Virus record (IMG/VR): IMGVR_UViG_3300045988_053918
Span: 1 to 54,149 of that record
Strand: one strand, 5' to 3'
DNA: 54,149 bases
Origin: a virus
Positions 14,985 through 52,851 of the stretch are shown one piece after another (the stretch's first letter is position 1; each line of letters starts with the position of its first letter). Position numbers and translations under genes: made by a program. The notes beneath the pieces are model-generated. The model had not been told where the DNA came from, ran no database searches, and saw only the letters and a program-made list of their open reading frames with translations.

Positions 14985-15197
14985 ATGAAGTTTTCGGAAC
15001 TTACTAAGCCGGAACTTGAAAAGATATTGGAAAATGCCAATTTTACCGAGGAAGAAGAGAGAATATTCAGACTTCTTTCTCGGAATTTTACACAAAAAGA
15101 GATAGTTGCACGATTATGCGTATCGCAAAGAACTCTTGAAAGGAGAATAAGAAACATTAAAAATAAAATTGAAAGGGTGTGCTGTGATTGGAATTAA
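14985..15197 (+). CDS. Small sigma-70 region-4 / LuxR-type HTH regulator
   Basis: FTEEEERIFRLLSRNFTQKEIVARLCVSQRTLERRIRNIKNKI. Confidence 0.55.
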   Translation: MKFSELTKPELEKILENANFTEEEERIFRLLSRNFTQKEIVARLCVSQRTLERRIRNIKNKIERVCCDWN

Positions 15198-16435
15198 CAG
15201 ACAAAGAGTTGTTGAATTATGTACTGGAGAATGGTATTATCTCTCGTGACGATGTTCAAAAACAAATTGAAATGAACGAAAGGAAAAAATATTTAAAAGC
15301 ACACAATAATGAAATCTGGCAAGGAAAGGATAAGAAGTGGTATACATACTTGCCAGACGAAAGCACATCAAGCGGCAGAAAGCTGCTAAAGCGTTCAACG
15401 CAAGAGTCTCTTGAAGATGGAATTGTGGAACACTACAAGAAACTCGCTAATGAACCTTTAGTTAAGACTGTATTCAAGGAATGGGTAGACCAAAAACTTG
15501 AATATCACGAAATCAAGAAGCAATCATATGATAAGTATAATGATAACTTCGCCAGATTTTTCACTAATGAAGCATATCACATGGCAGATAAGAAAATCAA
15601 GTACATTACAGAAGATGGCTTAGAATGCTTTATTAAGACTGTTATTGTCGAATGTAAACTTACGCAAAAAGCATATTCTGATATGCGAATCCTTATTAAT
15701 GGCATTTTTAAATATGCCAAGAAAAAGGGGTATACCAATCTAAGTATCACACAATTTATGGGAGACTTGGATTTATCACGCAGAGCTTTTACTAAAAATG
15801 TGAAAAAGAAAGAGGAACAAGTGTATTTCGAGGATGAAATTCCAAGAATCACAGAATATCTATGGCAACGATATGATATAAGGAGCTTGGGATTATTGCT
15901 TATGTTTGAGTGCGGAATGAGAGCTGGCGAGTTATCATCACTTAAGTTTTCTGATATTCACAACACTGTACTGAAAGATGGAACTATTAAACATTATATT
16001 TCTATACAAAGAACAGAAATTAAGGTCAGAGATGAAAATGGGAAATGGGCTAAGATAGTAAGCGACTATCCTAAATCTGACGCAGGATTAAGAGATATAA
16101 TTATTCCAGACAAAGCTGTAAATACTGTTAAGGCAATTCGTAGATTAAATCCTTTTGGAACTTATATGTTTGAAGAAAAGGGAGAGCGTATAAAGGAACA
16201 AGCATTTAACAGAAAGTTGCATAAGATATGTAAGGCACTGGATATTAATTATCGTTCCACGCACAAAGTCCGCCGGGCATACAGTGTTGCGTTGTATGAT
16301 AATTGCGTGAGTGACACTGTTATAACAGAAATGATGGGGCATACAAGCATTGAGACAACAAGAAAATATTACATTTACAGTAATAAGACTGATAGGACTA
16401 AGATTGAGCAAGTTAATAATGCTATCAATTATTAG
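15188..16435 (+). CDS. int: Tyrosine recombinase / phage integrase
   Basis: C-terminal catalytic region ...RAGELSSLKF...HKVRRAYSVALYD...MGHTSIETTRKYY; TTG start. Confidence 0.9.
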   Translation: MELTDKELLNYVLENGIISRDDVQKQIEMNERKKYLKAHNNEIWQGKDKKWYTYLPDESTSSGRKLLKRSTQESLEDGIVEHYKKLANEPLVKTVFKEWVDQKLEYHEIKKQSYDKYNDNFARFFTNEAYHMADKKIKYITEDGLECFIKTVIVECKLTQKAYSDMRILINGIFKYAKKKGYTNLSITQFMGDLDLSRRAFTKNVKKKEEQVYFEDEIPRITEYLWQRYDIRSLGLLLMFECGMRAGELSSLKFSDIHNTVLKDGTIKHYISIQRTEIKVRDENGKWAKIVSDYPKSDAGLRDIIIPDKAVNTVKAIRRLNPFGTYMFEEKGERIKEQAFNRKLHKICKALDINYRSTHKVRRAYSVALYDNCVSDTVITEMMGHTSIETTRKYYIYSNKTDRTKIEQVNNAINY

Positions 16436-16440
16436 GATTT

Positions 16441-16655
16441 TGATTACAAAGTAATCAAAGTAATCAAGGCACAAAGCCAGAAGCCCTGTAATAGAGCGAA
16501 ATAAGGGAGTAGTCAATGCAGTTCGATTCTCTCATCCCCTGCTATTTTTTCAAGGAGAAGAAACACTGCAAACCCGCATAAACACTGAATGAAAGGAGAT
16601 TTTTTGAACATCGTCTTTTTGTAAGGAAATAAAGAGGTAATCAAGAAAGTAATCA
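16441..16655. other. Putative attP region (arm-type repeats flanking a tRNA-3'-end-like core)
   Basis: GTAATCA at 16451, 16460, 16637 and 16649, plus an inverted copy at 16441; GTTCGATTCTCTCATCCCCTGCTA (16521-16544) resembles a tRNA T-loop to 3' end. Confidence 0.45.
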
Positions 16656-16668
16656 TAGAAGTTTAGCA

Positions 16669-16694
16669 AACGCCGTAATGGCGTTATTTTTTTT
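16669..16694 (+). terminator. Rho-independent terminator
   Basis: AACGCC-GTAAT-GGCGTT followed by a T8 run. Confidence 0.75.
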
Positions 16695-16783
16695 GCTTAT
16701 TTTTGGCGGATAACTGGCTTTTATATGGCGGTTAGTCCGTCTTTTTTTATGTCAAAATATAATCAGAAAGAGAGGTAGTGCGA

Positions 16784-16942
16784 ATGTTTTCTGATGAAGT
16801 TAGAGAAAAAATCTTAAGTAAAGAAGAACTGCAAAAACTTGACTTAGTGACATTATCTCTCGCTATCCACGCAATTGAAGAAGTCTTGGAGGAGGTAAAA
16901 GATGATAAACAATCCTTATCAGACAACACCTATGATGAATAA
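16784..16942 (+). CDS. 52-aa hypothetical protein
   Basis: AGAGAGG RBS; ATG 16784; TAA 16940-16942; below the track cutoff. Confidence 0.45.
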   Translation: MFSDEVREKILSKEELQKLDLVTLSLAIHAIEEVLEEVKDDKQSLSDNTYDE

Positions 16943-17450
16943 TTCTTATATGCAATCTCAAAATCCATATATGGATAGAATGAACTTTTTGCAAAATTAT
17001 CAGCAGAGCTTGCAACAGCCAGTGGCAGGGACACAAATGTCCTTAGCAAATCAACAGGCTATGCCCCAGCAGATAGCAGGCATTAACGGAAGAATAGTAC
17101 AGACAGTTGAAAATATTAATGCAAATGAAGTGCCTATGGATGGCTCAATGGCATTTTTCCCAAAACAGGATATGTCGGAGATTTATGTCAAGGGTTGGAA
17201 TGCTAACGGAACTATTAATACGATTGTATATAAGCCTTATACAGAACCAGGCGGAAGCAATGCTGGCAATCCGACAGCTGACATAGAAAACGCTAAATTT
17301 ACCCTATCAGACGAAAGCACACAGCTATTTCTGAATAAGTTTGAAGAACTATCAGAGAAAATAGGACAGTTGGAAGATAGATTTGATAAATCTTTAGGAA
17401 CACAAAGAAAAACTTCAAGAACTCAAAGCAAGGGCGGTGATGAAGAATGA
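16902..17450 (+). CDS. Gln/Asn/Met/Pro-rich protein with a folded central segment and C-terminal coiled coil
   Basis: GGAGGAGG RBS; MINNPYQTTPMMNNSYMQSQNPYMDRMNFLQNYQQSLQQP... Confidence 0.65.
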   Translation: MINNPYQTTPMMNNSYMQSQNPYMDRMNFLQNYQQSLQQPVAGTQMSLANQQAMPQQIAGINGRIVQTVENINANEVPMDGSMAFFPKQDMSEIYVKGWNANGTINTIVYKPYTEPGGSNAGNPTADIENAKFTLSDESTQLFLNKFEELSEKIGQLEDRFDKSLGTQRKTSRTQSKGGDEE

Positions 17451-17677
17451 ACCCAATTAACATTTTTCAGATGATGAAAGCTGGTCCGCAACAGTTCATA
17501 CAGCGGATGATGGGAAATAATCAGATTATGAGCAATCCTATGATGAAAAACACTATGCAGATGGCACAGCAGGGCAATATGCAAGGCATAGAGCAGATGG
17601 CTAGAAATTTATGCAAAGAAAAGGGGTTAAATGCAGATGATGTATTTAATCAGATAAAAAGCAGATTTGGTAATTAG
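17447..17677 (+). CDS. Small Met/Gln/Asn-rich protein
   Basis: ATGA-coupled to the upstream gene; MNPINIFQMMKAGPQQFIQRMMGNNQIMSNPMMKNTMQMAQQGNMQG. Confidence 0.6.
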   Translation: MNPINIFQMMKAGPQQFIQRMMGNNQIMSNPMMKNTMQMAQQGNMQGIEQMARNLCKEKGLNADDVFNQIKSRFGN

Positions 17678-17747
17678 TAGCATATTAGATGTCTTTGCAA
17701 ACTACCTAGGTGACATCTTTATGAATATATTTTTAGGAGGTAACAAT

Positions 17748-18536
17748 ATGTTTTCAAACTCAAATTGTGCCAGCATACCATTAGTCGCTAATATTGACGG
17801 CAACGGCAATAACGGCGGATGGGCTGATGGTGGATGGCTTTGGATAATCGTTGTATTTGCATTACTCTTTGGATGGGGCAATGGTGGATTTGGCGGTTTT
17901 GGTGGCAACAATGGCGGTGGCTATGTTGCGACAGCAGCTACACAGGCTGATATTCAGAGAGGATTTGATAATTCAGCAGTTATCAGCAAGTTAGATGGCA
18001 TTTCTAACGGCTTATGTGACGGCTTTTATGCCATGAACAACAGTATGCTCACAGGTTTCAATGGTATTAACACAAATGTCATGCAGACCGGTTATGGCAT
18101 CCAGCAGGCTATTAACGCTGATACAGTCGCTAATATGCAGAATACAAACGCTTTACAGGCACAGCTTGCTAACTGCTGCTGCGAGACGAGAGAAGCCATC
18201 CAGGGCATAAACTACAACATGGCAACTAACACTTGTGCTTTGCAGAACACCATGAATAGCAACACAAGAGACATTATTGATAGCCAGAATGCAGGTACTA
18301 GAGCAATTCTTGACTACTTATGCCAGGATAAGATAGCAACACTTACAGCAGAGAACAACGATTTACGCAGAGCTGCTTCACAGGATCGTCAGAGCGCACT
18401 ACTTACAACTCAGATGGCAGCTCAGACACAGCAGATTATCAATGCAGTAAATCCGTCCGCTATCCCGGCATATGTCGTACCTAACCCAAATGCTTATGCA
18501 TATGGTTGCGGTTGCAATACAGGTTGCGGATGCTAA
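17748..18536 (+). CDS. Gly-rich membrane-anchored, Asn/Gln/Thr-rich protein with a Cys-rich C-terminus
   Basis: GGAGG RBS; GGWADGGWLWIIVVFALLFGWGNGGFGGFGGNNGGGY; CCC motif; ends YGCGCNTGCGC. Confidence 0.65.
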   Translation: MFSNSNCASIPLVANIDGNGNNGGWADGGWLWIIVVFALLFGWGNGGFGGFGGNNGGGYVATAATQADIQRGFDNSAVISKLDGISNGLCDGFYAMNNSMLTGFNGINTNVMQTGYGIQQAINADTVANMQNTNALQAQLANCCCETREAIQGINYNMATNTCALQNTMNSNTRDIIDSQNAGTRAILDYLCQDKIATLTAENNDLRRAASQDRQSALLTTQMAAQTQQIINAVNPSAIPAYVVPNPNAYAYGCGCNTGCGC

Positions 18537-18629
18537 AACTTAATAATTGAGTATCTTAATTGAGTTTAACTCGATTATGTCTGCTAAGCAGTATTACTTG
18601 ATGTTACCGGCATAAATGTCGGAAAGATA

Positions 18630-18662
18630 AAGGGCAGGCTATAATGTTTGCCCTTATTTTAT
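18630..18662 (+). terminator. Rho-independent terminator
   Basis: AAGGGCA...TGCCCTT stem followed by ATTTTATT. Confidence 0.6.
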
Positions 18663-18678
18663 TGAAAGAGAGGTAAAA

Positions 18679-19101
18679 ATGATGGAAATAACAGGAATTG
18701 CATTACAAACAGTTGCCGCCGGAGAAGATGTGGCATTTACAGAAACACCGGTATGTGGTAGCAAATGTATAGTCCACAGACAGGGAAGCGGAATTATCAA
18801 GTTAAGAGGTATCACTAATCAGTGCAAGGCTAGATTTTTAGTATCTTATAGCGGCAATATTCAGATACCGACAGGCGGTACAGTTGAAGCTATCTCACTT
18901 GCTATTGCAGTAGACGGAGAGCCTTTACAGTCAACACGAATGATTGTAACACCGGCAGCAGTTGAGAATTTCTTTAATGTATCAGCACAGGCATATATTG
19001 ATGTACCTTGTGGCTGTTGCAGTACTGTAGCGGTGCAGAATACATCAGCACAGGCTATTGAAGTTCAGAATAGTAATTTGATTGCAGTAAGGGAGGCTTG
19101 A
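18679..19101 (+). CDS. Beta-rich 140-aa protein with a CGCC motif
   Basis: AGAGAGGT RBS; alternating hydrophobic pattern; ...AYIDVPCGCCSTVAVQN. Confidence 0.6.
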   Translation: MMEITGIALQTVAAGEDVAFTETPVCGSKCIVHRQGSGIIKLRGITNQCKARFLVSYSGNIQIPTGGTVEAISLAIAVDGEPLQSTRMIVTPAAVENFFNVSAQAYIDVPCGCCSTVAVQNTSAQAIEVQNSNLIAVREA

Positions 19102-19105
19102 TATT

Positions 19106-19720
19106 ATGCATAAATGGGCTAAACAGATTATGGAATGTGTCAAGGCTAAGGTTGAAGCAATCGGATTAGATAGCTTTGAAGGACAGAACCTTGATGATTT
19201 AAAGGATTTTACAGAAATAGCGAAGAACATAGCTTGCTTTGACAAAGATTACAGAATTGTTGAAGCTATGGAAAAGTCAGAAGATAACGAGGATATTATG
19301 CGTATGCTTGAACAGTACGAAGATTATCCGGACAGAAGATACTATGACCATTACCGCTATGCAAATGGCAGATTCGCCCCAAAAGGCAAAGGAACATACC
19401 GCAGAGGATATGAAGAACCGCCTTATATGCACATGTACCCAGAATCAGAGCATATGAGAGATATGGATAGAGATTATGGCAAGATGTATTATACAGAGCC
19501 AATGTCTGAAAGTAATTACGACAGAGCAAAGAGAAACTACACAGAAACTAAGGAAATACACAAGAATAACACACCAGAGGACAAGGAACATAAGATGAAA
19601 GCGCTTGACGGATATATTAAGGAGCTTGGCGGCGATATTACACAGCTTATCGGCGATATGACGGCAGAGGAACGCAATCTTATGCGTACCAAACTTAGTA
19701 CACTTGTTTCTAAGCTGTAA
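19106..19720 (+). CDS. Charged Tyr/Arg/Asp/Met-rich protein
   Basis: GGGAGG RBS; ...YPDRRYYDHYRYANGRFAPKGKGTYRRGYEEPPYMHMYPESEHMRDMDRDYGKMYY. Confidence 0.6.
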   Translation: MHKWAKQIMECVKAKVEAIGLDSFEGQNLDDLKDFTEIAKNIACFDKDYRIVEAMEKSEDNEDIMRMLEQYEDYPDRRYYDHYRYANGRFAPKGKGTYRRGYEEPPYMHMYPESEHMRDMDRDYGKMYYTEPMSESNYDRAKRNYTETKEIHKNNTPEDKEHKMKALDGYIKELGGDITQLIGDMTAEERNLMRTKLSTLVSKL

Positions 19721-19727
19721 ATTTAAG

Positions 19728-19762
19728 GGCTATGAGTAGCAATATTCATAGCCTGTTTTATT
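19728..19762 (+). terminator. Rho-independent terminator
   Basis: GGCTATGA...TCATAGCC followed by TGTTTTATT. Confidence 0.65.
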
Positions 19763-19779
19763 CAGAAAGGAGCGTACAG

Positions 19780-20100
19780 ATGATTTTTAGCATTAATGGC
19801 ACAATGTGGCAAGTACAATATAAAAATTCAAATTCGGGCGAATTAAAGCGGTCAGACAACGTTTCTGTGCTGGGTGTAACCGATAGAAATACACATACAA
19901 TTTATCTGTCAAATGCCTTGCGCGGATTTATGCAACGCAAAGTGATTATACACGAAGTATGCCACGCAATCTGTATGTCCTATGATGTGTATTTGCCAAT
20001 AGAGCAGGAAGAAATATTATGTGATTTTGTAGCGACTTATGGAGATGAAGTATTCGGCATTGTTGACATGATACTTGGAGCAGTTAGGAGAGTAGGATAA
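19780..20100 (+). CDS. Putative HExxH zinc metallopeptidase
   Basis: AAGGAG RBS before the ATG at 19780; VIIHEVCHAI motif. Confidence 0.55.
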   Translation: MIFSINGTMWQVQYKNSNSGELKRSDNVSVLGVTDRNTHTIYLSNALRGFMQRKVIIHEVCHAICMSYDVYLPIEQEEILCDFVATYGDEVFGIVDMILGAVRRVG

Positions 20101-20243
20101 TGAGTATTGATGAGCTGTTAAAGATAATTCAAAGAACTAATCCGACTATGACTAAGGAAATGTTGATATATGAGCTTAGTCAATGTCGGTATGCAAGCAA
20201 GGCATTGATTTATACAGAAAAATGTTGTAAGCTGGCAAAATAA
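20100..20243 (+). CDS. 47-aa hypothetical protein
   Basis: ATG overlaps the upstream TAA (ATAATG); open to TAA 20241-20243. Confidence 0.4.
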   Translation: MSIDELLKIIQRTNPTMTKEMLIYELSQCRYASKALIYTEKCCKLAK

Positions 20244-20423
20244 TTATTCACCAGCTTTTTCTACGCAGTCAATAATATATCCACTTAATCCTTTGAATCC
20301 TTTTTCTTTAGCAATCTTAGACCAGACTTCCTTTTTGCCCTTGGGTGCCATTACTGTAATTCTATCATAGTTTTTCTCATTCCAACGATTTTTTACTTCT
20401 GATGACGTTTTTGATTTTGCCAT
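20244..20423 (-). CDS. 59-aa ribbon-helix-helix-like (CopG/Arc-type) protein
   Basis: AAGGAG RBS on the - strand; MAKSKTSSEVKNRWNEKNYDRITVMAPKGKKEVWSKIAKEKGFKGLSGYIIDCVEKAGE; below the track cutoff. Confidence 0.5.
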   Translation of the reverse strand: MAKSKTSSEVKNRWNEKNYDRITVMAPKGKKEVWSKIAKEKGFKGLSGYIIDCVEKAGE

Positions 20424-20473
20424 GTAAATATAAACTCCTTTTTGCTTTTGATTATACTACTTGCAAAAGTATG

Positions 20474-20502
20474 TTGCAATACTTTATAAAGTATGATATA
20501 AT
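20474..20502 (+). promoter_or_regulatory. Promoter with an embedded 16-bp perfect palindrome
   Basis: TTGCAA 20474-20479, 17-nt spacer, TGaTATAAT to 20502; palindrome ATACTTTATAAAGTAT at 20479-20494; extra AAAGTAT at 20466. Confidence 0.55.
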
Positions 20503-20534: not shown

Positions 20535-21290
20535 ATGGCTGACTTAAACAGTATAGGTGGACTGCATTACGAAATGATGAGAAGATGTTATAACCCCCAA
20601 AGTATAGCATTTAAAAGTTACGGAGCTAAGGGGATAAAAGTATGTGAAGAATGGCATGATAGAGATAATTTTAGAAAGTGGTGTAATGAAAATGGATATA
20701 CAAAAGGTCTAAGACTTAACAGAATTGATAGTACAAAGGATTATTGCCCAGAGAATTGTGTATTGGGAAATAAAAATTGCAAAGACCAAAACAGCGCACA
20801 CCAAAAACTATATAGAAACATAAGACAAAACAAAGCAATCAAAAAAGAGCTTGGAATTGAAAGATATACTGATAGTCCATTATACAGAAAACACAAGAAT
20901 ATGATGGAAAGATGTTATGATGAAAAAAATATAAGTTATCCTTATTACGGAGCAAGAGGAATAGATGTTTGCTTTGAATGGAGAGGAAAGGATGGTGTTA
21001 AAAATTTTATCGCTTGGTCTATGAGAAACGGATATAAGCATGGTCTTTCATTAGACAGAATAGATAACGATAAAGGTTATTGTCCTGAAAATTGCAGATG
21101 GGTTACTATTCAAGAACAAGCAATAAATAAGCGAAGAAATAAAAAATATGAATGGAAAGGGCAAACACTTATATTGGCTCAAATTTCAAGAATGGAAAAT
21201 ATTTCATATGGTAAATTATATGGAAGAATAAATAATAATCATATGAGTATAAAAGATGCAATCGAAGATATAAAGAAAAGCACCGAATAA
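20535..21290 (+). CDS. Tandem AP2/ERF-like DNA-binding repeat protein
   Basis: Two copies of RCYNP/RCYDE...YGA(K/R)GI.VCEEW...GY.KGL.L(N/D)RID..K(D/G)YCPENC. Confidence 0.5.
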   Translation: MADLNSIGGLHYEMMRRCYNPQSIAFKSYGAKGIKVCEEWHDRDNFRKWCNENGYTKGLRLNRIDSTKDYCPENCVLGNKNCKDQNSAHQKLYRNIRQNKAIKKELGIERYTDSPLYRKHKNMMERCYDEKNISYPYYGARGIDVCFEWRGKDGVKNFIAWSMRNGYKHGLSLDRIDNDKGYCPENCRWVTIQEQAINKRRNKKYEWKGQTLILAQISRMENISYGKLYGRINNNHMSIKDAIEDIKKSTE

Positions 21291-22335: not shown

Positions 22336-22376
22336 AGCAAGCCGGGGAATCGAACCCCGGAAGCGCCAACCTTGCT
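22336..22376 (-). ncRNA. tRNA-like minihelix 2 (T-arm plus closing helix)
   Basis: - strand AGCAAG-GUUGGCGCUU-CCGGGG-UUCGAUU-CCCCGG-CUUGCU, between the two reverse-strand genes. Confidence 0.4.
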
Positions 22377-24017: not shown

Positions 24018-24704
24018 ATGGAGAAAGTACAAGAAGCACCAGACACGCCGGAGATATTCCAGAATGACATAGAATTATATCTGACAAAATTTTGTGAAGA
24101 GCATAACATCGAAGATATGACCAAAGAACCACAGAGCAGATGGAACGCCGCTCTTATGTATATAAATAAATATGTTTTTAGTGATAAAAGTATATTAAAA
24201 TTAAATAAGAATATTAATAAAAATAATACAAATTGTATTATGGATAATAATTTTAATATGTATGATTATGATAAAGTAGAGTATATATTATATATATATT
24301 ATTATTTATGTGCTGTATATGATAAAGAATGTAGTATTATAGGTTTTAGTTTATTAACTGGAATTAATAGAGATACTATATACGACTGGGGAACGAAAGA
24401 GAAAAAGCTAAGTACAAAAAGTTGTGACATCGCGCAAAAACTGCGGGTTTTTCGTGAAGAAAGTTTATCTAATAAGCTTGCAACTGGCAACAAAAATCCG
24501 GTCGGAATTCTTGCAATACTTAACAGACATTTTGCTTGGAACTTGCCCGGTGTTAGCAGAGAAAGCGCCACAAAGGTCATTAAAACAGCCGCAGACCTTC
24601 CGCAGCTCGGACCATCTGGAAACGCTCAAGGCTCTAATATTCGTCAAATTGCACAACAAGATTTCATTGTGCAAGATGTACAAGAAATCCCACAAAGCCA
24701 GTAA
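24018..24704 (+). CDS. terS: Terminase small subunit (SPP1 G1P-like)
   Basis: IGFSLLTGINRDTIYDWGTKEKKLS...KLRVFREESLSNKLATGNKNPVGILAILNRHFAWN. Confidence 0.6.
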   Translation: MEKVQEAPDTPEIFQNDIELYLTKFCEEHNIEDMTKEPQSRWNAALMYINKYVFSDKSILKLNKNINKNNTNCIMDNNFNMYDYDKVEYILYIYYYLCAVYDKECSIIGFSLLTGINRDTIYDWGTKEKKLSTKSCDIAQKLRVFREESLSNKLATGNKNPVGILAILNRHFAWNLPGVSRESATKVIKTAADLPQLGPSGNAQGSNIRQIAQQDFIVQDVQEIPQSQ

Positions 24705-24897
24705 ACAAGCGGGTTCTAGCTGTTTGACTCACGATAACAGCATTTCGCTAAATTAGACTTTAGCGAAGTGATAAAACAGAACATTTGAACGATAAAAGTA
24801 CGATAAAGCCAGTAAACAAGCGGATTGACAGCGATTGCGTGATAATTATTTATTGCGCAATGACTCCGCTCTGGCTGATTTCATTGTGCAAGATATA
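24660..24897. repeat. Duplicated terS 3'-end segments in swapped order
   Basis: GATTTCATTGTGCAAGAT at 24660 and 24875; AAGCCAGTAAACAAGCGG at 24696 and 24806. Confidence 0.8.
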
Positions 24898-25243
24898 CAA
24901 ACGCAGGGCGTGGGGGTTATATATACACGCATTGCACACCTAACTAAGTCGCTCAAATATTCTCAAAAATAAAAAGGCTTATTATATATATTTATATATA
25001 CATAACCAACCAATAATAATTTATTAAACTATATACAATAACCATTATATTTATTAATATATAGCTTTGATAATAACCCATATAATATAATCAATAAATC
25101 TACTGTACAAATCTGATAGATAGGTGTATAATAGACACATCTTAATTATTCACAAGATATTCAATAAACACATCAGAAAACGGCTAATTCAGCCGAGTAA
25201 ATTCCAAAAAATTTTAAAAAATAAAAAAGGTTAGGAGTTAGAA

Positions 25244-26022: not shown

Positions 26023-26094
26023 TGCACCATAGCCAAGCGGTAAGGCACAGAGCTTTGACCTCTGTATGCGTCGGTTCGAATCCGACTGGTGTAG
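26023..26094 (+). tRNA. tRNA-Gln (anticodon TTG)
   Basis: Cloverleaf folds by hand: acceptor TGCACCA/TGGTGTA (U1-A72), anticodon arm CAGAG-CTTTGAC-CTCTG, T-arm GTCGG-TTCGAAT-CCGAC. Confidence 0.85.
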
Positions 26095-26307: not shown

Positions 26308-26390
26308 GCCGATATGGGATAAAGGTATTCCAGTAGCTTGCTAAGCTATCCAACAGAAATGTTGTTCGTGTTCGATTCACGATGTCGGCG
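26308..26390 (+). tRNA. tRNA-Ser (anticodon GCT), class II
   Basis: Acceptor GCCGATA/TGTCGGC, anticodon arm GTAGC-TTGCTAA-GCTAT, long variable arm CAACA-GAAA-TGTTG, T-arm TCGTG-TTCGATT-CACGA. Confidence 0.8.
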
Positions 26391-26392
26391 CT

Positions 26393-26810: not shown

Positions 26811-26882
26811 CGGATAGTAGTTCAGTTGGGAGTAACGCTTGATTTATTCAAGTAGTCACAGGTTCAAGTCCTGTCTATCCGA
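26811..26882 (+). tRNA. tRNA with a UUA (ochre-reading) anticodon; non-canonical anticodon loop, possibly a pseudo-tRNA
   Basis: Acceptor CGGATAG/CTATCCG, T-arm ACAGG-TTCAAGT-CCTGT, anticodon arm GCTTG-ATTTATT-CAAGT (U33, TTA, but T at position 37); weak D-stem. Confidence 0.5.
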
Positions 26883-27004
26883 TTACAACAAACTAGGTTA
26901 GCTACCGAAAAGCACTTCCGCTGTGCCTGTTTGTTGTTTTTATCAATTAAGCGGAGTATGTATCACAGGCATGCATAAATAATATCAAGCGGAGGTATTC
27001 GATT

Positions 27005-30155: not shown

Positions 30156-30371
30156 ATGAAAATATCAGAGATGAATAACTGCATTGAGAAAATGCGGGAG
30201 TGCTACAAGTTTGATGATGATAAAACGGAAATACGGATTGGGGATATGATGAGTGGAAGTAACAGATATGTATCTGTCAGCACAATGAATGAAAACGGAA
30301 CACAGATTGAAATGACAAAATATGCAAATAAACTGAACAAGGAGCGAGATTATGGAGCACCAAGTAATTGA
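30156..30371 (+). CDS. Hypothetical protein
   Basis: AAGGAG RBS. Confidence 0.55.
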   Translation: MKISEMNNCIEKMRECYKFDDDKTEIRIGDMMSGSNRYVSVSTMNENGTQIEMTKYANKLNKERDYGAPSN

Positions 30372-30816
30372 GGGAACCGAAAAAGAAATAATAAGGCTTC
30401 AAGAGGAATTAGACGAAGCCAAGTTAGGAATAAAAACATCACAGAACGAGTTTCTCATTTGTGGTAATACGATGAAAATAGATATTCTTGGAGCAGAATA
30501 TAAAGTAGTACAAGGCTCTCAAGCAACGTTTCCGGAGCTTGCGGATGTCGATGGCTATACAGATACATCAACTAAGACAATAGTTGTTGATGATATGAAA
30601 AGCATAATTAACGAAAAAGGAATGAAGAAAAACCTTGAAGAGTATAAAAAAGCTATTATGCGACACGAAGTAATCCATGCATTTTTATTTGAAAGCGGAC
30701 TTGCGGAAAATTCAAACACTTCGGACGCGTGGGCAGTGAATGAGGAAATGGTTGACTGGCTTGCAATTCAAGCCCCGAAAATATTTTCTACGTTCAAGAA
30801 AATGAATATTTTGTAA
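30352..30816 (+). CDS. Putative HExxH metallopeptidase
   Basis: AIMRHEVIHAFLFESGL; AAGGAG RBS. Confidence 0.5.
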   Translation: MEHQVIEGTEKEIIRLQEELDEAKLGIKTSQNEFLICGNTMKIDILGAEYKVVQGSQATFPELADVDGYTDTSTKTIVVDDMKSIINEKGMKKNLEEYKKAIMRHEVIHAFLFESGLAENSNTSDAWAVNEEMVDWLAIQAPKIFSTFKKMNIL

Positions 30817-51570: not shown

Positions 51571-52851
51571 ATGAGTAAGTTATTCGGAATTGACACATCA
51601 AGATGGCAGGGAGACTTTGATTTCAAAGGCGCAAAGGATAATGAGGGTGTAGATTTTGCCATTATCAAGGCAGGTGGTGCTGATGATGGCTTATACGAAG
51701 ATAGAGAGTTTGAGAGCAGCTATAACAAGTTGGAAAGTGCAGGAATCCACAAAGGAGCCTATTTCTTTGGTAACGCATTAAGTGCTGATGAAGCTGTAAA
51801 TGAAGCTAGATATTTTGCACAGCTTTTAGCAGGTAAATCATTCTGCTATCCAGTATTCTATGATGTTGAAGCAGACATGGTTACTGGTAACGACCTTACA
51901 GATGTTATTATGGCATTCCTTGATGAAATGAGAAATGCAGGATATAAGAATGTCGGCTTATACTCATACGAGAACTGCATTAACAATTATGTAGACATTT
52001 CAAGAGTAAAAGAAGCTGGTTATGCCGTTTGGGTAGCAAAGTATTCAGATGCAGAACCTAGAATTGCTGTTGGTTATGATATGTGGCAATTCGGTGGAAG
52101 TGTTAATTATCTTAGAGACACACAGATTAACGGACAGACAGTAGACCAGAACTATTGTTACACTGATTATTGCACAGACCATGTCGTTGAAGAAATCACA
52201 GTGCCAGACTATGAGCCAGTACCAGACACTAAATACCATAAGGGTGATACAGTTAAGGTTATTAACGCTATTCAGTACGATAATGGCGAGCCATTCAGCA
52301 CTTACTATGATGAGTACAGTGTCTTATCAGCCAGTGGCAGAAGAGTTGTTATCGGTGTTGACGGCGTAACTACTGCTGCTATTGACGAGGATAACATCAG
52401 CCTTGTTAAGTGCATTTATGACAATGACAATGATATCAACACAGATACAGTAAATCGCGGCGACGGTAAGAAAGTCAGAGTGCTTGATAACATTGATTAT
52501 GACGGTGTTAGATTTGCGACATATTATGATGAATATGATGTAATTGAAGAGGACGGAGACAGAATTGTTATAGGTATTGGCACAACAATCACAGCCGCTG
52601 TCAATATTGCTAATCTTGAATTTGTCGGCGGTGCAAGTTCTGATGATACACCTACAGATATTCCGTTTAGCGGAGATATTGAAGAGGGTAGCACAGTGAG
52701 ATTTGTCGGCAATACTGATTATGACGGCACACCTATTAAGGCTTGGTTTGATGAATACACAGTATCAGAAAGAAGTGGAGACAGGGTTGTGCTTGCACAT
52801 GGCGGAGAATTATTCGCAGCGGTCAATGTAGCTGATTGTGAATTAGTCTAA
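51571..52851 (+). CDS. Endolysin: GH25 muramidase plus three C-terminal SH3-like wall-binding repeats
   Basis: MSKLFGIDTSRWQGDFDF...DFAIIKAG...GAYFF; three repeats of about 60 aa (...YDG..F..YYDEY.V...GDR.VIG...). Confidence 0.85.
   Translation: MSKLFGIDTSRWQGDFDFKGAKDNEGVDFAIIKAGGADDGLYEDREFESSYNKLESAGIHKGAYFFGNALSADEAVNEARYFAQLLAGKSFCYPVFYDVEADMVTGNDLTDVIMAFLDEMRNAGYKNVGLYSYENCINNYVDISRVKEAGYAVWVAKYSDAEPRIAVGYDMWQFGGSVNYLRDTQINGQTVDQNYCYTDYCTDHVVEEITVPDYEPVPDTKYHKGDTVKVINAIQYDNGEPFSTYYDEYSVLSASGRRVVIGVDGVTTAAIDEDNISLVKCIYDNDNDINTDTVNRGDGKKVRVLDNIDYDGVRFATYYDEYDVIEEDGDRIVIGIGTTITAAVNIANLEFVGGASSDDTPTDIPFSGDIEEGSTVRFVGNTDYDGTPIKAWFDEYTVSERSGDRVVLAHGGELFAAVNVADCELV

Follow-up and report, generated by a model that had tools for sequence, protein, structure and literature searches.

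A stretch of viral DNA of 54,149 nucleotides (IMG/VR record IMGVR_UViG_3300045988_053918, analysed over its whole length and called the window below) had been described, in a reading of the sequence alone, as carrying eight consecutive + strand open reading frames (ORFs) immediately after a putative phage attachment site (attP), with products of a composition very unusual for phage proteins. All eight ORFs are present as described, at 16784-20243. Their coordinates were verified, and an independent gene caller agrees with them (ENA contig of identical sequence); the attP was confirmed by the tRNA-Trp genes of two related loci (L086 and L142). The block is one copy of a conserved mobile cassette that consists of gA, a gB-like gene, gC, a hairpin, a D slot, an E slot, and a small peptidase gene. 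Thousands of phages share the gene set, its order, the slots, and the cis elements, which are conserved at several positions in the genome. The features of the block are as follows:

16784-16942, + strand: g0, acidic micro-protein of 52 amino acids (aa); lineage-specific, homologs in 34/109 loci
16902-17450, + strand: gA, core component with a Q/N/M/P/Y-rich N-terminus (from alignment A3)
17447-17677, + strand: gB, 76-aa mini-protein rich in M/Q/N (from its composition)
17748-18536, + strand: gC, signature protein of the cassette (phrog_16490, 5e-59; alignments A5 and A7)
18630-18655, + strand: conserved hairpin between gC and the D slot, read as an attenuator or RNA stabiliser
18679-19101, + strand: gD, standalone TNF/C1q-like jelly-roll protein (AlphaFold2 (AF2) model and Foldseek; phrog_20016, 3e-69)
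19106-19720, + strand: gE, helical ends around an R/Y/D/M-rich stretch (alignment A4 and motif statistics)
19727-19754, + strand: second internal hairpin, before gF
19780-20100, + strand: gF, small HExxH zincin-type peptidase-like protein (phrog_1233, 3e-17; Peptidase_M78 borderline)
20100-20243, + strand: gG, 47-aa micro-protein; lineage-specific, homologs in 30/109 loci

The motifs that had been quoted for three of the proteins are correct (YGCGCNTGCGC at the end of gC, VPCGCCS in gD, and HEVCH in gF). Composition was evaluated as z scores, with the 83 other ORFs of the window as reference. The claim of unusual composition holds for gB (M 15.8%, z 7.7; Q 14.5%, z 5.6; N 14.5%, z 3.6), gA (Q 10.4%, z 3.5), and gC (N 13.4%, G 11.8%, A 12.6%), whose residue shares are unmatched by any of the background ORFs. 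The minimum 30-aa entropy of gC, 2.60, also lies under the 5th percentile of the background (2.86). The bias of gE is only regional (Y 8.3%, z 1.9), and the composition of gD is unremarkable.

A scan of the window located T-tailed, terminator-like hairpins at 16669, 16727, 18630, and 19727. The two internal ones had been taken for terminators, at 18630 and 19728, that split the block into sub-operons. The hairpins do exist; because a ribosome-binding site (RBS) and a start codon follow each of them within ~25 nt, we read them as attenuators inside one operon and not as operon boundaries. No RNA family was matched in an Rfam scan of the block. A σ70 consensus scan returned 32 sites versus 32.4 in shuffled sequence and was not used, as there was no excess.

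Distribution and composition of the cassette

Loci were collected from GTDB genomes (77) and from IMG/VR (80), iterative profiles were built, and 109 loci had sufficient flanking DNA. Among these 109 loci, gA was found in 108, gE in 100, gD in 83, and sig, a regulatory gene described below, in 76; their order never varied. The genes thus co-occur as a block elsewhere, in agreement with the sequence-only reading. The families are large: gC comprises at least 8,000 and gD at least 6,000 clusters at 90% identity (both lower bounds), and gA comprises 1,585 clusters at 50% identity. All source names in the three families are “hypothetical protein”. Megablast of the block against GenBank phages returned nothing; relatives could be reached only by protein-level search.

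Slot occupancy was counted in 29 de-replicated diverse loci, all of which have both gA and gC. The D slot contains either gD (14 loci) or D' (13 loci), never both. D' is a Cys-rich beta protein that is not homologous to gD (hhalign probability 0.5%, no detectable homology). The E slot is filled by gE in 21 loci and by E', a DUF7841 protein with an R/Y/D-rich stretch like that of gE, in six, and again the two types never occur together. A gB hidden Markov model (HMM) detected 52 of the 109 loci, and a gB-like ORF was seen in 17 of 20 HMM-negative diverse loci; a Q/N/M-rich mini-protein of this kind is nearly always encoded between gA and gC. A papain-like protein of ~121 aa (pap), with an invariant D-C...H...D pattern, abuts the cassette in 21 of the 29 loci. 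The lineage of the window is without pap and has the HExxH protein gF in its place, a rarer variant present in 3/29 loci. An apparently strong mutual exclusivity of papain and HExxH proteins (55 versus 28), and with it the idea of substitution, was weakened in the de-replicated set, where HExxH is simply rare. The transmembrane protein tm107 was likewise considered as a cassette member; it more likely belongs to an adjacent lysis module, as it directly follows the endolysin in Butyrivibrio virus Ceridwen.

All carriers come from animal guts. They comprise phages of Lachnospiraceae (the hosts of the window's lineage), Oscillospiraceae, Clostridium, and Bacteroides, and crAss-like phages. Ceridwen has the complete set (tm107, sig, pap, gA, gB, gC, gD, an HNH insert, gE, and gH); it is without an integrase, has been seen only in lytic growth, and was judged probably virulent by its authors (PMC7372960). 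Six C. perfringens phages carry gC. Bacteroides phage C3_41T2LP encodes gC, a beta-rich Cys protein, a protein with gA-like architecture, and a 77-aa R/Y/D-rich protein, together with a weak DUF7841 match and an HExxH metallopeptidase (“PolyVal”). In several crAss-like phages gC lies beside an E' homolog (E = 1e-44), and uncultured gut phages of the sipho, myo, and podo types encode free-standing gD-like proteins. The cassette is not restricted to phages of spore formers, since its carriers include phages that infect Butyrivibrio fibrisolvens or Bacteroides uniformis as well as crAss-like phages. A borderline tblastn match (E 1e-3) was also obtained with the C. perfringens gC homolog, to BK063680.1 / NC_134205.1 at ~24577-24990. 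This is Caudoviricetes sp. vir335, a virus assigned to methanogenic archaea of the gut (Methanomassiliicoccales host), and the gC family would, if the match is real, cross domains of life.

Homing genes of the HNH type were found repeatedly within the cassette or next to it. In Ceridwen one separates gD from gE (L162, 8097-8960), in the C. perfringens phage CPD1 one separates gB from gC (L163, 6095-6745), and the window has one at 20535-21290, downstream of gG. The cassette seems to be a favoured homing target for such endonuclease genes. Between gG and the HNH gene of the window lies a convergent - strand gene for a 59-aa basic protein (20244-20423), whose stop abuts the gG stop, and divergent promoter-like sites for this gene and the HNH gene lie at 20451-20502.

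Repeated insertions of homing genes would fit a conflict system, in which the membrane protein and its partners act in superinfection exclusion, defence, or anti-defence. The mobility of this accessory module, its variable positions, often near lysogeny genes, and the combination of a membrane protein with a peptidase point in the same direction. However, PADLOC returned no credible match (only a hit of sig at the level of its helix-turn-helix (HTH) and a coiled-coil-type hit between gC and ZorA, 0.0023), and Pfam and NCBIfam scans found no nuclease, ATPase, or NTPase domains. Moreover, low-complexity and TNF-like structural proteins are atypical for conflict systems, and instead of the fast turnover usual for them this set is conserved in order across hosts of two phyla. 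We consider a conflict role highly improbable.

Regulatory elements of the cassette

The following features lie upstream of the cassette:

14985-15197, + strand: sig, 70-aa σ70 region-4-like HTH protein, candidate activator; upstream of the cassette in 76/109 loci
16669-16685, + strand: terminator-like hairpin, read as insulating the cassette from upstream transcription
16704-16709 and 16726-16731, + strand: two TGGCGG direct repeats 22 bp apart, candidate activator sites
16744-16762, + strand: cis element TTTTTATGTCAAAATATAA, with a −10-like TATAAT at 16758-16763 and without a −35

In the window, the integrase gene and attP separate sig from the cassette. The match of sig to TIGR02937 (3e-5; 23.6 bits versus a cut-off of 42.9) covers region 4 only (residues 10-63), and judged by its sequence the protein is better described as a sigma-r4/LuxR-type HTH protein than as a member of the σ70 family. 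The 19-nt element TTTTTATGYNAAAATWTAA has a single occurrence in the window, at 16744-16762, and is directly followed by an RBS; the second TGGCGG repeat overlaps the hairpin at 16727-16741. The element was present once per locus in 55/172 loci, always on the coding strand and just upstream of gA or g0. Cassettes embedded among head genes have it as well, and its alignment columns are invariant. Direct repeats with a spacing of 10-11 or 21-22 bp lie upstream of the element, at the same position in each lineage and with a sequence that differs by lineage: two copies of TGGCGG in the window and, elsewhere, three of TGTCGC, three of GTGCGT, or two to three of GATAC. The classes of the sig recognition helix track the classes of repeats (identity among sig proteins is 0.95 in the same class and 0.34 across classes), and a fairly divergent locus, L012, retains both S-x-R-T-V-E-R and GGCGG. 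Such tracking is as would be expected for an activator and its cognate promoter, and the cassette promoter seems to require an activator whose gene lies in lytic operons.

The predicted promoter resembles the Alt-type late promoters of TP901-1, which combine a −10 without a −35, upstream direct repeats at helical-turn spacing, and a small activator encoded just upstream. The cassette likewise has a −35-less −10, repeats at helical-turn spacing, and a DNA-binding-type gene, sig, upstream. It is unlike the late activator systems in that sig is a 70-aa region-4-like HTH protein and in that the element serves the cassette only, and not the packaging and lysis operons. A RinA/ArpU/LtrC superfamily of late activators in Gram-positive phages, with four families, has been described (PMC3753634).

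In 33 of 36 diverse loci, a stable hairpin (folding free energy, dG, <= −12) separates gC from the D slot. The median dG of these gaps was −17.8 kcal/mol versus −9.5 for shuffled sequences, and values <= −12 were reached by 94% of observed and 20% of shuffled gaps. The median gap is 116 nt between gC and the D slot versus 6 nt between the D and E slots. A conserved hairpin and a long gap after gC form the pattern that is usually seen after a major-subunit gene.

Integration site

Two further features separate sig from the predicted promoter:

15188-16435, + strand: tyrosine integrase (Pfam Phage_integrase, 1.2e-19), whose start overlaps the end of sig
16520-16544, + strand: attP core, identical to the 3' end of the host tRNA-Trp(cca)

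Similarity to the window ends exactly at 16520 in four relatives (L085, L086, L142, and L148). Two of these contain a complete host tRNA-Trp(cca) gene (L086, 141-212; L142, 65-136), whose last 25 nt align with window positions 16520-16544 as identical sequence. This proves the attP at 16520-16544; a tyrosine integrase gene beside an attP that matches a tRNA 3' end is the arrangement of a tRNA-targeting integration module. It follows that in the lysogen the cassette begins ~230 bp inside attL and reads inward, so that the earlier claim that the block abuts attL in the integrated state is borne out by both the breakpoints at 16520 and the tRNA-Trp alignment. The segment with the integrase and attP (~15070-16739) is swappable: many relatives carry a different ~1.9-kb module there, while both flanks, that is, the 5' portion of sig and the sequence from 16740 on, are kept. 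An exchangeable integrase-attP module was probably inserted between sig and the promoter in this window, which would have placed the cassette beside attL in lysogens. The adjacency to att is peculiar to the lineage of the window.

Several RNA features were noted elsewhere in the window. A T-arm-like hairpin CCGGGGTTCGATTCCCCGG lies at 22342-22360 on the - strand; ARAGORN calls no tRNA there, and it may be a tRNA fragment or a leftover of another att site. A suppressor tRNA with anticodon tta, which reads UAA, is encoded at 26811-26882 (+ strand; ARAGORN; Rfam tRNA, 51.6 bits), along with tRNA-Gln (26023-26094) and tRNA-Ser (26308-26391). The same trio is present in the relative L086 and suggests stop-codon suppression or recoding in this phage group. 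Directly after the suppressor tRNA, at 26886-26952 (+ strand), Rfam finds an int-alpA small RNA (45.3 bits versus a gathering score of 35.8).

Predicted properties of the cassette proteins

Based on its alignment, gA starts with a low-complexity segment, which is followed by a conserved beta domain of ~60 aa, a coiled coil, and a tail of basic and acidic residues; neither Pfam nor the PDB yielded a match for it. gC contains a hydrophobic helix flanked by Gly, Trp, and Phe, followed by long helices, one of ~90 residues in a low-confidence AF2 model, and its alignments reveal invariant CCC, NYNMA, and ASQ motifs and a C-terminal GCGC. The R/Y/D/M-rich stretch of gE includes a GR[YF] motif (NGRFAPKGKG in the window), which is present in 88% of gE proteins versus 5.5% of background ORFs; for a longer version of the motif the shares are 60% of gE proteins, 3/11 E' proteins, and 0/1,715 background ORFs. 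No hydrophobic N-terminal signal-like segment was seen in gA, gB, gD, or gE when the sequences were read by eye.

The HEVCH-containing gF matches PF06114 (Peptidase_M78) at 22.7 bits versus a cut-off of 22 (E 9.4e-5), and its phrog_1233 match has a function-less label. A paralog of gF, also an HExxH protein of phrog_1233 (3.7e-23), is encoded at 30352-30816 on the + strand, just upstream of the terminase region, and gF-type genes occur outside the cassette in several related loci.

No credible match was obtained when profiles of gA, gC, gD, gE, D', and pap were compared with all PDB sequences. Searches of the window proteins against Pfam, NCBIfam, and PHROGs returned only PHROGs of unknown function, the borderline M78 match, and the integrase, and no description of the module was found in the literature on DUF7841, BclA and prophages, proteomics of carrier phages, or sporulation genes of gut phages. 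The sequence-only reading was therefore right in that no described system in Pfam, PHROGs, NCBIfam, PADLOC, or this literature fits the protein set.

gD resembles exosporium proteins in fold

The AF2 monomer model of gD is a ten-strand jelly roll (predicted local distance difference test (pLDDT) 91.2, predicted template modelling score (pTM) 0.84) that is superposable on the C-terminal domain of BclA (BclA-CTD), ExsFA, or TNF ligands. Foldseek matched it to PDB entries 9h38, 9h3d, 8d02, 7r1m, 1wck, and 1rj7 with template modelling scores of 0.65-0.76, E-values to 1.5e-8, and a probability of 1.00. The best matches are the F-BclA C-terminal domain, ExsF, BxpB, ExsFA, and BclA-CTD, followed by TNF ligands and C1q. 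In sequence, 6 of 23 diverse gD relatives match Pfam BclA_C (PF18573; best E 5e-7); the gD of the window has no hit at E <= 1. The collagen-like GXX repeats and the exosporium targeting motif of BclA proper are absent, and gD is a 140-aa globular domain only. The likeness to spore-coat or exosporium proteins that had been suspected from composition thus stands for the fold of gD (BclA-CTD, ExsFA, BxpB) and does not extend to the other components, which are without known relatives.

The exosporium set (ExsFA/BxpB, BclA-CTD, F-BclA/ExsF of F-ENA, and ExsY/CotY) provides the best fold match for gD. Like ExsFA/BxpB, gD is a standalone domain of ~140 aa; as in the exosporium set, its partners in the cassette are Cys-rich, have no signal peptides, and are accompanied by a peptidase. 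Attachment of BclA involves a proteolytic step and the docking of a short N-terminal peptide onto a TNF-like trimer. Unlike the exosporium set, the cassette is without collagen-like repeats, and no homologs of ExsY/CotY, CotE, or other exosporium proteins were detected. It is also phage-encoded, has a predicted promoter of the phage activator type, and is present in phages of non-sporulating hosts. The anchoring of exosporium hairs is the nearest mechanistic analogy; the cassette may work like this system and is not placed among its members.

Genomic neighbourhood

Flanking ORFs of 49 diverse loci were scanned against PHROGs. Genes for holins, endolysins, and amidases, or else for portal and MuF-like minor head proteins, predominate on the upstream side; on the downstream side the cassette is followed by integrase and repressor genes or by genes for scaffold and major head proteins. 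In the abundant group of ~45-kb phages the gene order is terS, TerL, portal, MuF, pap, a transmembrane protein gene, sig, gA, gB, gC, hairpin, gD, gE, scaffold, and major capsid protein. The pap start overlaps the MuF stop in this group, and no + strand terminator precedes gC. In the window, the cassette is located among early and middle genes, >30 kb away from the endolysin gene (51571-52851).

Location between portal/MuF-like and scaffold/major capsid genes, with translational coupling to MuF, is what a virion-associated module would show. The proteins could then be head or tail decorations or fibres, with gC as a trimeric coiled-coil stalk and gD as a C1q-like knob. Alternatively, they could be packaged and ejected with the DNA, in which case the low-complexity chains would thread the tail, the Gly-rich hydrophobic segment of gC would enter the host membrane, and the peptidase would process proteins. 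Phage fibres and spikes do bear C1q/TNF-like knobs, gC homologs of crAss and Bacteroides phages have been labelled “spike” or “viral fibre” by others, a hairpin behind a major-subunit gene is typical of structural operons, and the cassette of C3_41T2LP includes the “PolyVal” metallopeptidase. The C1q/TNF-like knobs of phage and giant-virus fibres share the fold class of gD; these knobs, in contrast, are C-terminal domains of long collagen-like or fibre proteins, whereas gD is free-standing and encoded beside low-complexity and membrane proteins. In addition, the carriers are labelled sipho-, myo-, podo-, and crAss-type in the source records, which would be unexpected for a part specific to one capsid or tail. 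The place of the cassette in the genome also varies, frequently being behind lysis genes or among early ones; the cassette has its own predicted transcription factor and promoter, and a folded TNF-like trimer would not fit through a tail tube. A virion-associated module is therefore, in our view, unlikely.

The prevalence of holin, endolysin, and amidase genes upstream raises the possibility of an accessory function in lysis or egress, in which an i-spanin- or fusogen-like gC, with its membrane anchor, coiled coil, and cysteines, and its partners would disrupt or remodel the envelope at release. In crAss cr52_1, a LysB/Rz-like gene precedes the gC pair. Like the i-spanins lambda Rz and P2 LysB, gC has an N-terminal membrane helix, long helices of coiled-coil type, and conserved Cys residues, and its gene often adjoins holin and endolysin genes; its Gly/aromatic segment resembles viral fusion peptides in our own reading, which we offer as a lead only. 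gC is unlike i-spanins in being about two times longer, with a Gly-rich flank and a C-terminal GCGC, and in always accompanying gA and usually D-slot and E-slot proteins. The hosts, moreover, are mostly monoderm Firmicutes, without an outer membrane for fusion, and the block encodes no lipobox protein that could be an o-spanin partner. Known lysis systems have no equivalent of the four or five cytoplasmic proteins, among them low-complexity ones and a putative TNF-like trimer, and the distance to the endolysin in the window also speaks against this role, which we regard as rather unlikely.

The window had been interpreted from its layout as carrying a moron, i.e., a block expressed in the lysogen, whose coat- or exosporium-like products would enter the spore or cell surface of the host. 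The layout itself agrees: a promoter-like element and terminators flank the block, the block abuts attL, and as a portable extra block it varies in position among related genomes. Many phages have the cassette in the slot between lysis genes and integrase, which is typical of morons; exosporium proteins are the closest in fold to gD; a make-up rich in Cys, Tyr, and Gln and the lack of signal peptides fit coat proteins (a comparison made from general knowledge); and many Lachnospiraceae and Clostridia sporulate. The cassette is unlike morons in comprising six to nine genes versus one or two, in being near-universal in its phage groups and not sporadic, in its occurrence in a probably virulent phage, in its translational coupling to head genes in one group, and in its −35-less predicted promoter with an apparent dedicated activator. 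Nor is the moron position a general trait, since elsewhere the cassette follows holin/endolysin genes or lies between MuF-like and scaffold genes.

The SleB-like gene that had been cited in support of a spore link is present (2363-2884, + strand; Hydrolase_2, 7.6e-13), and the Spo0A-C-like gene cited with it was not located among ten further ORFs scanned. The SleB/CwlJ-type gene lies in the early region beside an anti-repressor gene (1725-2354), apart from the true endolysin, and the same pairing of anti-repressor and Hydrolase_2 occurs in Ceridwen. Because it is a common phage gene with the same anti-repressor context in Ceridwen, it is no marker of a spore link. A catalogue of sporulation genes in gut phages has cwlJ/sleB and truncated spo0A and does not list coat or exosporium genes (PMC10294663). 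We favour a role in the lytic cycle over spore conversion because the complete cassette is found in the integrase-free and probably virulent Ceridwen, because its core occurs in phages of non-sporulating Bacteroidota, including crAss-like phages, because it stands in line with head genes in the commonest phage group, and because its promoter seems to need an activator from a lytic operon. Conversion by a spore-coat moron is thus quite improbable and unlikely to be the general function of the cassette.

Proposed function of the cassette

We propose that the cassette is a conserved, mobile, and self-regulated unit of gut phages that is switched on in lytic growth and whose products build up, inside the infected cell, an assembly of several proteins anchored to membrane; we assign this reading a probability of roughly 0.4. 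The acceptance of non-homologous alternatives in the slots, the conserved internal attenuator, and the linkage of a peptidase to the cassette suggest that the products form one assembly, with A, B, and C as major components, D and E as minor ones, and a maturation step. In this scheme, sig, encoded at the end of a lytic operon, would bind the lineage-specific repeats and activate the −35-less promoter upstream of gA or g0. gA, gB, and gC would be made in excess, the hairpin after gC lowering expression from the D and E slots and so setting the ratio of major to minor subunits. gC may anchor the structure through its hydrophobic helix with Gly/aromatic flanks and its long coiled-coil region, and the low-complexity gA, gB, and gE may serve as matrix or adaptor components. 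gD, a putative trimer of the ExsFA/BxpB type, would be the distal or anchoring unit and may dock a short motif, e.g., GR[YF] in gE, and a small peptidase, papain-like in most phages and the HExxH protein gF here, would mature a component. The logic would be like that of exosporium hair anchoring without being tied to spores: components that lack signal peptides would assemble by themselves in the cytoplasm, together with a partner rich in Cys and a TNF-like trimer, and one step would be proteolytic. More speculatively, since carriers are confined to gut phages of both Firmicutes and Bacteroidota and usually express the cassette together with the lysis genes or later, the targets of the assembly are probably envelope remnants or the released particles, at the time of lysis or thereafter.

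Several observations weigh against this proposal. Integrase and repressor genes are frequent downstream of the cassette, and in the window it is insulated by terminators at the prophage end, a layout also typical of morons expressed in lysogens. The co-variation of sig and the repeats is confounded by phylogeny, i.e., by shared ancestry. The maturation step is affected by the borderline assignment of gF as a peptidase, by the presence of the gF paralog elsewhere in the window, and by the 6/29 diverse loci with no peptidase nearby. The AF2 model of gC is unreliable (pLDDT 48.6), and the biological role proposed for the cassette is conjecture.

An extension of the lytic-assembly proposal is that phages of gut anaerobes build a coat- or exosporium-like matrix. 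This would be a late, cytoplasmically assembled layer rich in Cys, Tyr, and Gln, anchored on membrane by gC and capped by a TNF/C1q-like trimer, which would be released at lysis and would protect or retain progeny virions on their way between animal hosts, through cross-linking when exposed to O2 or through binding of host or mucosal ligands by the C1q-like domain. We consider this extension very doubtful. If true, viruses would have their own equivalent of the spore surface, passed on horizontally among phages of Firmicutes and Bacteroidota as a result of their shared habitat.

Implications

If the proposed assembly is real, one of the commonest accessory modules of gut phages would be an uncharacterised multi-protein machine with its own genetic switch. 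It would be a new kind of phage-encoded assembly and would include the first phage counterpart of the TNF-like anchoring proteins of the exosporium. The module is present in cultured phage-host pairs (Ceridwen with B. fibrisolvens, the six C. perfringens phages, and C3_41T2LP with B. uniformis), which makes the proposal directly testable. The sig gene and its predicted repeat promoter would form a compact orthogonal regulatory part of possible use in gut Firmicutes. The assembly, if it is formed as proposed, could bear on the release, persistence, and animal-host interaction of phages of anaerobes.

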